From the NCBI GenBank assembly GCA_034780895.1, contig JAUZTB010000127.1:82473988-82537987 (forward strand): a stretch of 64,000 nucleotides of DNA. The letters are read 5' to 3'. Below, one piece after another: positions 1,820-55,860 of this stretch. Each line of letters opens with the position of its first letter. Position 1 is the stretch's first letter. The translations under genes were made by a program, and so were the position numbers. Origin of the DNA: Rhynchobatus australiae. Taxonomy: Eukaryota. The notes below the pieces were generated by a model that did not search any database, had not been told where the DNA came from, and saw only the letters and a list, made by a program, of their open reading frames with translations.

Positions 1820-2056
1820 AAAGAAACAAAGGACTGCAGAGGGTGGAATCTAGATGAAAAACACGATGATGCTGGAGGAACTCAGCAGGCCAGGCAGCAT
1901 CCATGGAGAAAAAAGCGGGCGGTCAACATTTCGGGTCAGGACCCTGCTTCAGGACTAAAGATAGGAAAAGGGAAAGCCAATATATAGGAGGGAAAAGCAG
2001 AGTAGTGATAGGTAGATGCAGGAAAGAGATAGTGATTGGCAGGTGCAGGGGAGGAC
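1820..2056 (-). mobile_element. Penelope-like terminal repeat with hammerhead-like motif, running into an assembly gap
   Basis: Reverse complement closely matches ~14670-14925. Motif AGTC-CTGAAGC-A-GGGTC-CT-GACCC-GAAA-TG-TT-GACC at 1956-1921. Confidence 0.82.
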
Positions 2057-3148
2057 NNNNNNNNNNNNNNNNNNNNNNNNNNNNNNNNNNNNNNNNNNNN
2101 NNNNNNNNNNNNNNNNNNNNNNNNNNNNNNNNNNNNNNNNNNNNNNNNNNNNNNNNNNNNNNNNNNNNNNNNNNNNNNNNNNNNNNNNNNNNNNNNNNNN
2201 NNNNNNNNNNNNNNNNNNNNNNNNNNNNNNNNNNNNNNNNNNNNNNNNNNNNNNNNNNNNNNNNNNNNNNNNNNNNNNNNNNNNNNNNNNNNNNNNNNNN
2301 NNNNNNNNNNNNNNNNNNNNNNNNNNNNNNNNNNNNNNNNNNNNNNNNNNNNNNNNNNNNNNNNNNNNNNNNNNNNNNNNNNNNNNNNNNNNNNNNNNNN
2401 NNNNNNNNNNNNNNNNNNNNNNNNNNNNNNNNNNNNNNNNNNNNNNNNNNNNNNNNNNNNNNNNNNNNNNNNNNNNNNNNNNNNNNNNNNNNNNNNNNNN
2501 NNNNNNNNNNNNNNNNNNNNNNNNNNNNNNNNNNNNNNNNNNNATCAGAATGTCCCACACCCAACAATTGGTTTCAACAGCTTTAAGTATCAGTTGAAGT
2601 TAAATTGTGACCAGGTTTTATTTCCTGAAGACTGATTCACATTTTAGCTAATATCTGCTATCCATAATTTCATAACTCCAGAATAATCCCAAACATTATG
2701 ATAATGCCAAGGGTTGGAATTCTGAATTACAGAATCCAACAGCAAACACAGTCAACCACCGACAGCGAGAGGGGGAAGGGAGATGTGGAGTGTTGGCTAA
2801 AGAACAAACAATCAGTAGTCCCATCGTGGAGAAGTGAGCTGTGCACGGATTTATGAAGTACTCAGCCAGGAAGCCCCAACTAAAGTCATGAATGTGATTT
2901 TATGCAGAGCAACTTGCAGTTTATTGTGCAAATGCCGCTTCTAAATTAAAACTGCTGGAACTTTTATCAGGTTTTTGTTATTTTAAGCAACAAAGGCAAA
3001 TCAAAAATGACTAGGTAGAACCACGAGTTATTAAAAGGGAAGATAAAAGGACCACTAATGCCACATTCAAGATATGTCATACAATAGTACAGCTTTAAAT
3101 TAAAAGAGTGATCATTTCTCAATTAATGAAGAGAGATTTTCCACTTAC

Positions 3149-3212
3149 CCTTGCCCGATCTTTTCAAATCTTGTGTACTTCTTTTTGGGATCACCCACAC
3201 TAACTATGCTCC
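3149..3212 (-). CDS. PAK3: PAK3 coding exon 7 (start of kinase domain and Gly-rich loop)
   Basis: (R)[21 protein letters not shown], 64 nt. Acceptor cttttctttcag, donor GG|GTAAGT. The next exon (ASGTVY...) was not seen in 1-3148. Confidence 0.96.
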
Positions 3213-3382
3213 CTGAAAGAAAAGTTCTTGTTGAATGTAAAGATATTGGAATCATGGTATGTAGAATCTGCTTTTGTGAACATTTGTGCATTAGAAAGGC
3301 ATATCTATCATACTAATTAGTTAAGGATCCTTTGAAGTTAGAAGTCTGCACGAATCAAGAGGGGTTATTTTTAAATACATAC

Positions 3383-3563
3383 TTAATTTTTCAAGGATCT
3401 CTTCATCTGTCATCTTGGATTTCTTCCTTTGTTTGTCGGTGTTTCTGCAGAGCTGGCTGTTCAGACCACTCACATTTTCAGGTGGTGTTGTGACTGGAGA
3501 AGTTGTCACATCTTTGACAGGTGCCACTGGAACAATGGGCTCAATTACTGATCGGGTAAAAAT
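3383..3563 (-). CDS. PAK3: PAK3 coding exon 6 (linker to kinase domain)
   Basis: IFTRSVIEPIVPVAPVKDVTTSPVTTPPENVSGLNSQLCRNTDKQRKKSKMTDEEILEKL+A, 181 nt. Acceptor ttttctttctccag, donor A|GTATGT. Confidence 0.96.
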
Positions 3564-4399
3564 CTGGAGAAAGAAAAGGATTGGTCAGAATCACAACACA
3601 AACAACTCATTAAAATGTATAAATGCTCTCCAGACAGCAAAGCATCAAACTTAAAACTGAGCTGTACAAAACAAGGTGGTTCCTGTTGCCAAGTGGGAAA
3701 GGAATGTGTTGAGGTCTGGCTGCTAATTAACATCAAGCACCTCCTACAATGGAGAGAGATTAATTTTCAAATTGAGCATGCACAGAAAACTAAATTTTTC
3801 TCTGATTTTTCAAAGGAAAGGAAAATTGGGCAAGGTGTGTACTTGAACAACTTTCACAATTGCAAATGTGACTCCTGTATCCAACGTTACAATTACCCTT
3901 GAGACAGGCAGAGGTAGATCAGTGTACTGCCCCTATGGAAGTATAGTCTGTTCACGTCAATTGGATTGATTTACAGAATAAGCACAGATATACGATAAGA
4001 ATCCAAGGAATTATAGTTAAGAATGAGTTTAGGACTACTGGGGAGAAATGCAAGGGTGAACGGTCAAATTAAAAAAAAATTCAAGGTTGTTCTAAATCTT
4101 CATTCTTTTTTCACTCCATTTTATGTGCAAAATTTGGCTTGAAATTCTGTGAGGAACTGCTCCCATAGTGATCAGGATGAAAATAGTTGGATCGTTTCAA
4201 ATATTTTGTTTTACAGCTTTAAATTGTCTTTATCCAACAATTCACTTTCAGGATTTAAATCCAAAACATTCCAGGGGTTAAAAGAAACCCAATGCACTGT
4301 TAGTCTACCATTTGCTGGAAGCTTGGCATCATTCAATGCACGTGAAACTACGCTGCAGATGTTAAGAATACTAGAACACAAGAAAAAGAAACAGAAGCC

Positions 4400-53027: not shown

Positions 53028-53185
53028 TAGAAAATGCTGGAAACACTCAGCAGTCAAGCACCAACTATATACGAGTTAACATTTCTGGTCAACCCTCGTC
53101 AGAACTGCTGCCTAACCTGCTGTGTATTTGCAATATTTTCCATTTGATTCACCTTTCCAGCATCTACGGTATTTTTGATTTTCAG
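53028..53185. mobile_element. Inverted-pair PLE-tail derivative with hammerhead-like core
   Basis: Left arm agaaaatgctggaaacactcagcag, right arm ...tttccagcatctacgg. Minus-strand AGTT-CTGACGA-GGGTTGACCA-GAAA-TG-TT-AACT at 53106-53074. Confidence 0.65.
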
Positions 53186-53689
53186 TGTTGACTCACCAAA
53201 ATACTACATTTTTTTGGAGCTTTTCAGCCATTCTCAACTTGGAAAGAGAAGTCAGAGTTTGTGCAGCACAATGTTCACCTAGTTGCTCCACAATTTCACA
53301 CCAGCATAAATAAGCAAATCCACTAATTGCTTCTTTAGAGAGGCATCCTAGGCAACTAAAAGAAAAAATCACCCATTCATTTATGAATGAAGGATCCTTC
53401 CATGGTTATTGTAATCTAAACTTAAAACCTGTTCCATCACCTTCTTGCCTGAGAAATTGGCACAATGATGTTCAATTTCACCCTTGAGTAGTAGGTTAGT
53501 TTTTACTGTGAAAAACCAAGCCAGAATTTCATTTAACCAAAAACAAAAAGAGCCTCAACAATTCTTGTCCCAAACACTTTTGCACATCATGATACTGAGT
53601 AGATGTCTCCATGGCTGCAAAGTGTACAGTTTTTATTTGAATAAAATTAATCTATAAAGTTCTGGATCAAAAGCCTCCATTTCAGGAGG

Positions 53690-54095
53690 GCCTCAGATGG
53701 ACTCTTGTTTTTAGCTCAAGCATAGACTTTGAAGTATGTTGAAGTGCAATTGGGGAGGTTTGAATTATCACTTGCATACTTTTGGAAACTATGCCGAATG
53801 TAAATTCAGATGACATACTTAACGCAGCTGGATGTCCAGTCAATAGCCTCCTGAGATGCCAAGAAAATGAGGTGCCCTCATCTACACATCTTAATGGGCA
53901 GGTTGACAAGGTTTTCCATGGTTTGGGACTCACTGCACTTTGAGTCATCTGGCATCTTCCATTTATGCAGGGTGTACCACATTGCCCATGCTCCATGTAG
54001 ATTCTGTTGAGGGCTGCCCATGTTTTCAGGGTCAAAGCCACAGAGCTATATTGCAAGGTCAATGATGAGGTCTTGGATACATCTTGCATTAGATA
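53690..54095 (-). mobile_element. Probable RTE-clade LINE remnant
   Basis: Degenerate RT-like text. Shares acagagct and its context with a second remnant at ~40700-40990. Clade assignment is tentative. Confidence 0.4.
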
Positions 54096-55657
54096 CATCC
54101 CACTGTTCCTTACAGAGTCATAATGTCTTATAGCATGAAAGTAGACTCTTCAGCCCAATTAGATCNNNNNNNNNNNNNNNNNNNNNNNNNNNNNNNNNNN
54201 NNNNNNNNNNNNNNNNNNNNNNNNNNNNNNNNNNNNNNNNNNNNNNNNNNNNNNNNNNNNNCCAGATGGATAGGGCAAGAGTTTGTTCTCTTTTCAAGCT
54301 GCAATAATTTAGAGCACTCACATATTCCTATACTTATCATGTTGGACAGAAATCTTTTACTTGCCTCCATGAAATAAGATTTCCTTCCAAAAGTTCTCTT
54401 CAATTTCTATGTATAATTAAGTCACCAAAGTTTGTTCATCCGAATGCTAAAGAAAGTATTCATTATAAATGCATTTAGCACAGGTATTTTAAGAGGAAGT
54501 TTGTTAAAAATCAGGTGTCCAAAAATCATAAATTAGGTGATGTAAATGATTTGTCTTGAAATCCAACACTTCATTGATTAATACATTCAGGATTGATGGA
54601 TGGTTTCTGTGATTCATCAGTTCAGTAATATTTCATATGTCCCCATACTTGAATATGCTACGAAAATAAGAAATATGTGGGAATAGACCAAAATTTCCTC
54701 TCAAGCTGCCTCTGTCATTCATTTAGATCAATGCTAATCCTTTGCCTCAGGACTCTGTCTCATGCCTCATGATTCCGTTAATGCCAAACATCATCTAGTN
54801 NNNNNNNNNATTTACATCCATCAATAATGAAGTTTCTCATCTCCATTCTATATGGAGAGTCTCCAATTCAGAGATTAATTTTACACAGTCTAGCTCAAAC
54901 CCTGGCAATCCCTTTTGGATTTGTACACATCCCAATCACCTTTCATTCTTCTAAGTACTAGTGGGTTTGGGGTAGCCTTACTTACTCTCTCCTTAATGGA
55001 CAGACAGCTTTTTCCAGGGATCACGTCTATTCAACTTACTATGTACCCACTCCAAGGCAACTGCATCTTTCTTTGGGTAGGGAGAACAATTCATCATATC
55101 AAACCTCCTCAGAAAGGTCAGGAATCTATGCATATTCCAGCATTCCAATACCACCTCTAACAATTTAAACTTCCATCAATAATCCCCTTTAGAGAAGGAA
55201 ATCTTCCTCACCCTGTTGTCATGTGATTCCACTATGAAAGCAACTAGTCAGCTCTGTACTTGCAAACCAAGACAACAGATAGAATGTTGCAGCAACTTCT
55301 TTGAACAGCACCTCCCAAATCTGCAAACCTTTCCATCTAGAAGAGCAGACCATGGAAAACTGATTCTAAAAATCAGACCTCAGAGGAGGACATGTTAAAA
55401 TTCTGGATTGCCTTGCTCATTGACACGGTGGGAGTATCTTCATCACTACTACTTTTCAGGAAGGCAGCTCAACACCACATTCTCACGCCATAGGAATGGT
55501 CAGTTAATGCCAGCACTGCTCATCACCCAGAGTGAATGAAAAACCATATGAAAAATGAGCAGCTGGATCAATTTTTCTGTTTAACCTCATCTGGAATAAC
55601 TTGGAGGTTCCCTTAGCCAAATAGGCAGAGAATTTTGTGCTACAAAACGCATCCATT

Positions 55658-55860
55658 TGAAACAAAAACTGCTGGAGGATCTCAGAGAATCGAGCAGGAT
55701 CTGTGGTGGCAAAGGGATGATTGGAATTTTGGAGTCTTGATGCAGGCTCTTCACTTGAAACACCAAACGCCTTGCCCCCACAGTTGCTGCTTGACCTGCT
55801 GAGATCCTCCAGCAGTTTATTTTTTTGCTCCGGATTTCAGCATCTACAGTTTCTTGTGTC
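55658..55860. mobile_element. Inverted-pair PLE-tail derivative
   Basis: aaaactgctggaggatctcag (55666-55686) is mirrored by ctgagatcctccagcagttta (~55799-55819). Degenerate core cttgatgcagg..cttgaaac lies between them. Confidence 0.65.

Follow-up and report, generated by a model that had tools for sequence, protein, structure and literature searches.

Along the 64,000-nucleotide stretch of the Rhynchobatus australiae genome analyzed here (the window), dispersed repeats carry a sequence resembling a minimal hammerhead ribozyme, which raises the question of what kind of element they belong to and whether its hammerhead must ever cut. An earlier note on this DNA counted about 10 copies of one repeat superfamily and named five stretches as the clearest. 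The superfamily is real and, on reading out the window sequence, the five stretches are genuine copies; the count was nonetheless too low, because a profile search with the ~150-nt module gives 19 matches, ~13 of them extending into the hammerhead region (Table 1). Many of these matches are divergent pairs from a single insertion, and the copy number genome-wide is estimated at about half a million.

Table 1. Repeat modules, hammerhead motifs and predicted promoter in the window.
Feature	Position	Strand
Family-A minimal hammerhead; the only one in the window whose core and two stems are all complete (G.U pairs); predicted cut 14827/14828	14796-14831	+
TATA-like box, 31 nt before the stem I A (14796); predicted core promoter	14765-14772	+
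Family-A pseudo-LTR arm: 3' UTR, hammerhead, ~70-nt spacer, ~30-nt tail	14530-14926	+
Inverted partner arm: decayed RT-EN linker (CX4CXXC at 14101-14286), GIY-YIG end, 3' UTR; stops within hammerhead at ~13448	13436-14515	-
Family-A pseudo-LTR, tailed; position 9 of hammerhead 1921-1956 is C (a state in 3/71 family-A copies); upstream end masked by N	1823-2056	-
Family-A module, start within hammerhead	48381-48514	-
Family-D1 module without tail; hammerhead 15863-15898 has GATA instead of GAAA; divergent partner of 16392-16525	15794-15908	-
Family-D1 module with tail, decayed core; homology reaches ~16196	16392-16525	+
D-type module without 5' part of hammerhead	15535-15655	+
Family-C1 module with tail (family core: C at position 9); hammerhead 33231-33266 decayed (stem II broken, stem I 3' strand decayed)	33222-33360	+
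Partial module, divergent, adjoins 33222-33360	32986-33054	-
Fold-back pair: minus arm 53026-53108 (hammerhead 53074-53106, deletion in stem II), plus arm 53101-53177	53026-53177	
Fold-back pair: minus arm 55659-55731, plus arm 55726-55860 (hammerhead decayed)	55659-55860	
Old fold-back pair: minus arm 47810-47928, plus arm 47940-48060	47810-48060	
Old modules: 11416-11494 (-), 11496-11548 (+), 11749-11847 (+, hammerhead decayed)	11416-11847	
Old weak module, 21 bits	17174-17284	+

At the level of the family consensuses, the motif is a minimal type I hammerhead, as had been proposed, with core and both stems kept and an ACGU stem III decayed at its CpG. The core elements CUGANGA, GAAA and UH are present in families A, D and part of B, and stem I (3-5 bp) and stem II (4-5 bp) are paired in all six family consensuses, among which the core varies at 0-1 of 12 positions versus a divergence of 7-35% downstream. 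Conserved blocks also occur in the downstream spacer, so the hammerhead does not stand alone in this respect. The decay of the palindrome is borne out by the family tables, positions 15.2/16.2 being CG, TG or CA in five families and rarely TA, and 15.2 is mostly C in RNA reads of a related species; the same tables confirm the extra residue before stem II and the change of stem I between AGTC/GAC and AGTT/AAC (C-G versus U-A). On the other hand, the T placed before the cut site holds for families A and D only, being a C (within a CpG) in the B and C families. Also, the five clearest copies all read as described, but only the one at 14796-14831 has the full core and both stems, through G.U pairs, the defects of the others being given in Table 1. 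The window copies are fossils, of which at most one could fold, and the window has no second intact copy on its strand with which it could pair.

Could this resemblance have arisen by chance within the repeat? A strict minimal-hammerhead descriptor gives one match in the window, and two if core variants are allowed, with none in 100 Markov shuffles in either case. Genome-wide, an exact 35-letter intact pattern has 1,085 matches and a second one, of family D, has 63, each versus 0 for its reversed control. A chance origin would agree with the Rfam scan of the window, where no hammerhead family was matched even at E up to 10, and with the covariation score, which is reached or exceeded by 265 of 500 shuffles (41 copies) and is not significant at the copy level. 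Nonetheless, all core residues, the right spacing, both stems and the palindrome occur in six family consensuses, stem positions are 77.8% paired versus 12-45% when the partners are slid, and the motif is located where Penelope-like elements (PLEs) carry one according to passages of PMC4209133, chance being in our judgment hardly credible. The single clean two-sided change between families, in stem I, has a Fisher p of 3e-4 in random copies and represents one event. An apparent compensation at 10.1-11.1, from G-C to A-U (12 of 24 copies in a mixed old cluster), was rejected, A at 10.1 being found in 6 of 63 intact D motifs. Cofolding predicts strand-swapped duplexes instead of the catalytic dimer and is uninformative.

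The earlier assignment of the repeats to PLEs is upheld by their surroundings. GIY-YIG and RT coding sequence lies upstream of the module, this being PLE coding sequence in families A, D1 (protein matches in 12/30 loci) and C1 (11/30). Moreover, in 23 of 30 loci the module directly precedes the N-terminus of the ORF, the consensus downstream of this 5' module having an in-frame ATG ~135 nt beyond the cut site. A pseudo-LTR (pLTR) is present on both sides of the ORF, after EN and before the ORF start, in a composite put together from different loci. A 381-aa open stretch contains the RT core, a CX4CXXC linker and GIY-YIG in one reading frame and has 139 long homologs, mostly ~700-1000 aa in length, that carry RVT_1 and in many cases GIY-YIG; its direct Pfam matches are below the cut-off (E 0.01-0.04), Pfam gave no match for short decayed pieces or for 15 other window frames, and a PDB search gave 0 matches. 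The copies also have the PLE signatures of an inverted truncated partner and an optional 30-40-nt tail on one end: module 3' ends fall at two sites ~30 nt apart that delimit the tail, and of 31 pairs 27 have this tail on one arm only. The CX2-5CXXC linker between RT and EN, a feature common to Neptune and Nematis, points to a Neptune-type placement of the element.

A retrozyme-like nature had been offered as an alternative, where the short copies would be a separate, non-autonomous family akin to retrozymes or SINEs and spread via small circular RNAs. The majority of module copies are shorter than 200 nt, same-strand neighbors account for 24 of 67 close pairs, and animal retrozymes derive from pLTRs (bioRxiv 10.64898/2026.07.22.740005). 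However, divergent pairs predominate (33/67), copy 5' ends spread continuously from within the motif into the ORF, and tandem arrays of the module were found neither in the window nor in 100 random 10-kb stretches. Because the tested families (A, C1 and D1) join PLE coding sequence and divergent pairs outnumber same-strand ones, this origin is disfavored for them and we consider it improbable. Non-LTR retrozymes also contain pLTR-related sequence with type I hammerheads but are tandem arrays, whereas the copies described here are dispersed truncated PLE ends. The repeats are very probably the pseudo-LTR ends of truncated and decayed Neptune-type PLEs, each with a minimal type I hammerhead motif for which weak, dimer-dependent self-cleavage is predicted in the active parent.

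This class of motif is already published, minimal hammerheads being reported in the pLTRs of metazoan PLEs including fish Xena, Poseidon and Neptune (Cervera and De la Pena 2014, PMC4209133), and the present members are those of another vertebrate genome. As in passages of that paper, the motif is of type I with a short stem I, an extra residue between 9 and 10.1, palindromic 15.2-16.2 and, in most families, G10.1-C11.1, and it occurs in dispersed single copies and opposite-strand pairs, with several consensus families per genome. In comparison with the same passages, stem II is shorter here (4-5 bp), amplified families have C at 9, U4A or G.U at 10.1-11.1, and the ~0.5 million modules are mostly decayed. 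Cartilaginous fish are not named in these passages or in two supplement files of the paper, whose other supplements may already list variants or shark sequences. Like the Neptune/Nematis EN+ PLEs (Craig et al., bioRxiv 10.1101/2021.04.23.441226), the element encodes RT and then GIY-YIG in a single ORF with a zinc-finger linker, and has an inverted 5'-truncated partner and a tail on one end.

Where the RNA of the parent begins is suggested by the sequence around stem I and by the ends of the copies. The stem I A of the family-A hammerhead (14796) sits in an initiator-like sequence with a TATA-like box at -31 (14765-14772), which, by the usual promoter consensus, would form a core promoter. The box and the initiator-like sequence place the likely transcription start at stem I, where family-A 5' ends cluster (9/59 versus 1/59 at the cut site). 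In family D1, 4 of 30 ends fall at -5 to +3, without a sharp peak. A 5'-end peak in a random sample (28/164 at -5 to -1) was set aside because between-family homology also stops there, and the family-A test was used alone. RNA reads of the related species display no pile-up of starts or ends, and no canonical splice joint is found among the joints listed for them; splicing was rejected both for the pyrimidine-AG stretches that precede stem I and for the end of the tail, with no shared upstream exon. The Drosophila virilis Penelope promoter (PMC2377424) likewise lies within the pLTR and has an initiator element, but it is reported to be TATA-less and internal, with an intron, whereas three families here have a TATA-like box at -31 and no intron is shown.

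On the reading favored here, the hammerhead probably makes up the initial ~35 nt of the mRNA, downstream of a TATA/initiator promoter; reverse transcription probably begins at the tail ends and mostly halts early, often at the hammerhead front, and therefore the copied RNA would be uncut (or re-ligated). Selection probably acted on the RNA of the parent elements and not on the inserted copies, which decay about neutrally. More tentatively, we propose that in these Neptune PLEs a TATA box and initiator start transcription on the first base of stem I, that RT priming takes place at the tail sites of both the 5' and the 3' pLTR, and that many short copies would be run-off, strong-stop-like cDNAs of uncut mRNA, whose transfer rebuilds the pseudo-LTR. 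The families with C at 9 would then indicate that the second A is the invariant partner of G12 and that the "extra" residue lies between G8 and A9. The Poseidon element PAc of Anolis carolinensis (PMC11167929) also has a hammerhead in its pLTR, and the copies here can be likened to it in that two RT start sites bound a 30-40-nt tail and the main substrate is unprocessed RNA. Unlike in our element, the PAc ORF starts in stem II; the RT-EN linker here has the CX2-5CXXC finger of Neptune/Nematis.

Abundant, amplified families carry altered core residues. Position 9 is C in 30/35 and 19/23 copies of families C1 and C2, U4A occurs in 16 of 44 family-B copies, and C at 9 and U4A are found in 9 and 11, respectively, of the first 100 intact matches listed (of 1,085). 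This would fit a motif derived from a hammerhead that no longer needs to cut, being kept as a promoter/5' UTR and RT-binding structure while core variants spread as catalysis is dispensable. Such a reading leaves the PLE assignment untouched and is a rival on function only. In its favor, copies span the cut site and start there in only 1/59 and 1/23 in two samples, B, C and D monomers are predicted to fold into an inactive rod, and hammerhead mutants of the anole Poseidon still insert in vitro (PMC11167929). Nonetheless, circularized RNA, too, would leave the cut site without 5' ends, the anole motif cuts once protein is added (PMC11167929), and the core changes between families are mainly at tolerated sites (N7, H17), with the ACGU palindrome kept. 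We regard the loss of any need to cut as rather unlikely.

Finally, the extension of a published motif to another vertebrate genome is ordinary in itself. The hundreds of thousands of insertion ends are a natural map of where the RNA of the element starts and where its reverse transcription starts and stops, and the amplified core variants are natural tests of the tolerance of the minimal core. This record of insertion ends bears on how PLEs rebuild their end repeats and on whether their hammerhead must ever cut.

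The module, a repeat of ~150 nt forming the pseudo-LTR end of Penelope-like elements (PLEs), carries a minimal type I hammerhead motif of a kind already described, corresponding to the min-HHR that Cervera and De la Pena described (PMC4209133), for which low in vitro activity is reported, and only in dimers or trimers. Five hammerhead-like stretches singled out in the earlier note were re-read in the window, and their sequence is as claimed. An iterated profile search gives 19 module matches in the window, ~13 of them extending to the motif. A minimal-hammerhead descriptor (3-bp stem I, core, 4-bp stem II, GAAA-NN-T-H) matches a sole window site, located inside a family-A arm, with 0/100 shuffles matching; permitting core variants adds 1921-1956, and an Rfam scan of the window at E up to 10 returns no hammerhead family. 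Genome-wide, 100 evenly spaced 10-kb stretches (817,294 non-N bases) contain 194 module matches at E 1e-3 and 205 at E 1e-2. Scaled to a genome of 2.23 Gb, these counts correspond to 0.46-0.56 million modules; the intact descriptor is satisfied at only 1-2 sites of the sample. Exact intact patterns occur at 1,085 places genome-wide for families A-C and at 63 for D, the reversed controls giving 0. The window is also CpG-depleted (observed/expected 0.20), consistent with a vertebrate source.

Features of the window discussed here or observed beside the modules
Feature	Coordinates	Strand	Description
LINE-like fragment	12298-13123		~73% similar to 29443-30109; no Pfam match; presumably CR1/L2-like, by resemblance
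GIY-YIG/linker-type PLE piece	13436-14515	minus	back to back with the arm 14530-14926
Family-A pseudo-LTR arm	14530-14926	plus	
Hammerhead inside this arm	14796-14831	plus	sole descriptor match
Tail-pairing region	14845-14915	plus	
LINE-like fragment	29443-30109		as 12298-13123
Long inverted arms	44355-46456		~200 nt each (86-91%), spaced 1.7-1.9 kb; may be a fold-back or DNA transposon
Inverted SINE pair	44934-45161, 45577-45806		tRNA-like-headed; flanked by the arms of 44355-46456
Purine/pyrimidine hairpin	56135-56211		weak miRNA-family scores, far under gathering thresholds
Local repeats	58937-60801		218-nt direct pair 1492 nt apart, 89-nt pair, inverted 53-nt pair

Clustering of 279 of the 438 copies (score >=45 bits, motif covered) separates subfamilies A (71 copies), B (44), C1 (35), C2 (23), D1 (38) and D2 (24), a mixed remainder of 36 copies being excluded from the consensus comparison. 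Stems I and II are both paired in 6/6 family consensuses, which differ from each other at 0-1 of 12 core positions and by 7-35% in the downstream 70 nt. The compatible difference in stem I proposed in the earlier note is borne out, the inner pair being C-G in A-C and U-A in D. Also, pair 10.1-11.1 is G-C in families A-C and G.U in D, and residue 7, residue 17 and loop 2 vary between families. At positions 15.2/16.2, families A, B, C1, C2 and D1 have CG, TG or CA and seldom TA; most D2 copies have CA. This pattern indicates an ancestral ACGU stem III, so that its decay at the CpG, put forward in the same note, is backed in five families. Core variation is family-wide in two cases: C9 with A next after it, in 30/35 C1 and 19/23 C2 copies, and U4A, in 16/44 family-B copies. 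Family-A copies mismatch their consensus at 3.9% in the core and 4.6% in the flank, and core mismatch is below flank in 5/6 families, partly an effect of locus selection; similar rates in inserted copies are expected of fossils. For covariation, 48 copies were selected by downstream identity and 7 gapped or badly decayed rows removed; in the resulting 41, pairing is found in 77.8% of cells, compared with 12-45% for slid partners. Their covariation score does not exceed that of shuffled data, since 265 of 500 shuffles reach it. An A-U change in stem II proved only apparent, being found in just 6/63 intact D motifs. At another locus (L235:520-890), two decayed family-C2 modules lie on the same strand ~230 nt apart, a layout that could permit a cis dimer.

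Family-A modules have GIY-YIG sequence, a linker of the CX4CXXC type and an RT on their upstream (5') side, and this RT-EN linker points to the Neptune or Nematis clade. Pfam scores for the PLE coding sequence are weak (RVT_1, E 0.028; GIY-YIG, E 0.012-0.034). An open stretch of 381 aa at locus L042 runs from the RT core through GIY-YIG and has 139 long homologs, with RVT_1 annotated on most and GIY-YIG on many. PLE protein matches lie near modules at 12/30 D1 and 11/30 C1 loci, mostly in sense and 200-900 nt upstream. Moreover, 5' walking places the same module immediately 5' of the ORF N-terminus in 23/30 loci, and the consensus has an in-frame ATG 32 nt past the end of the tail, the extra ~30 nt at the 3' end of some copies.

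Close neighbour modules are divergently oriented in 33 of 67 pairs, module 3' ends are bimodal at two positions ~30 nt apart, and the tail is present on exactly one arm in 27/31 divergent pairs. These are PLE signatures according to Craig et al. (bioRxiv 10.1101/2021.04.23.441226), and the anole study (PMC11167929) attributes such ends to two RT start sites. At the other end, family-A copies were compared at 59 distinct loci selected on the downstream part only, two being queries and several having ends masked by N or contig ends. Relative to C3, 9 begin at -4..+1, 15 at +2..+39 and 5 at -45..-5, and one at the predicted cut site (3' of residue 17). The excess at -4..+1, a bin suggested by an earlier sample, has P ~8e-4 against the +2..+39 density. 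Also, 6/12 inverted partner arms begin at -9..+2, and RNA reads from a relative contain several inversion joints located at this front edge. In A, C1 and B (the last judged from only 4 copies), an A/T-rich, TATA-like box lies at -31..-24 from the stem I A; the box of D1 is at about -28. The stem I A itself falls within an initiator-like sequence. The predicted box differs from the D. virilis Penelope promoter, described as internal and TATA-less (PMC2377424). RT stalling on the stems, rather than an RNA start, would also explain 5' ends around the hammerhead. The sharp peak at the motif front is absent in D1 (4/30 loci); of 23 ORF-bearing copies (among loci L360-L389), 1 begins near the front, 4 extend farther upstream and 9 begin at +87..+101, the boundary where tail-less copies end. 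RNA reads of a related species (three runs, one study) give deep coverage of the module on either strand and hardly any of the ORF start, with no pile-up of starts or ends.

In the literature searched, no description was found of this motif in sharks/rays, of the position-9 variant or of PLE strong-stop copies, though Lunse et al. 2017 may cover them; a 2026 preprint (bioRxiv 10.64898/2026.07.22.740005) reports retrozymes and PLEs in one chondrichthyan, and PMC6155905 and PMC6765202 are further related papers.

The copies establish the element architecture, families, decay and end positions, and the following mechanism is proposed. RNA synthesis from the upstream pseudo-LTR would start at stem I, and the hammerhead could cut ~32 nt downstream of this start when two copies pair via ACGU, a duplex with a predicted energy of only -1.7 kcal/mol; for B-D monomers, the predicted fold is an inactive rod. 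Since the copies extend across the cut site, their templates would have been uncut or re-ligated, and in vitro insertion without cleavage is reported for the anole element (PMC11167929). RT would prime at tail ends, usually halting early. Finally, structure prediction for the window arm and for the consensus of each family pairs the tail over 8-9 bp with the segment directly 3' of the hammerhead, enclosing a conserved 5-bp hairpin with a loop varying by family (z -0.4 to -3.1), and this predicted fold is a candidate RT recognition structure.
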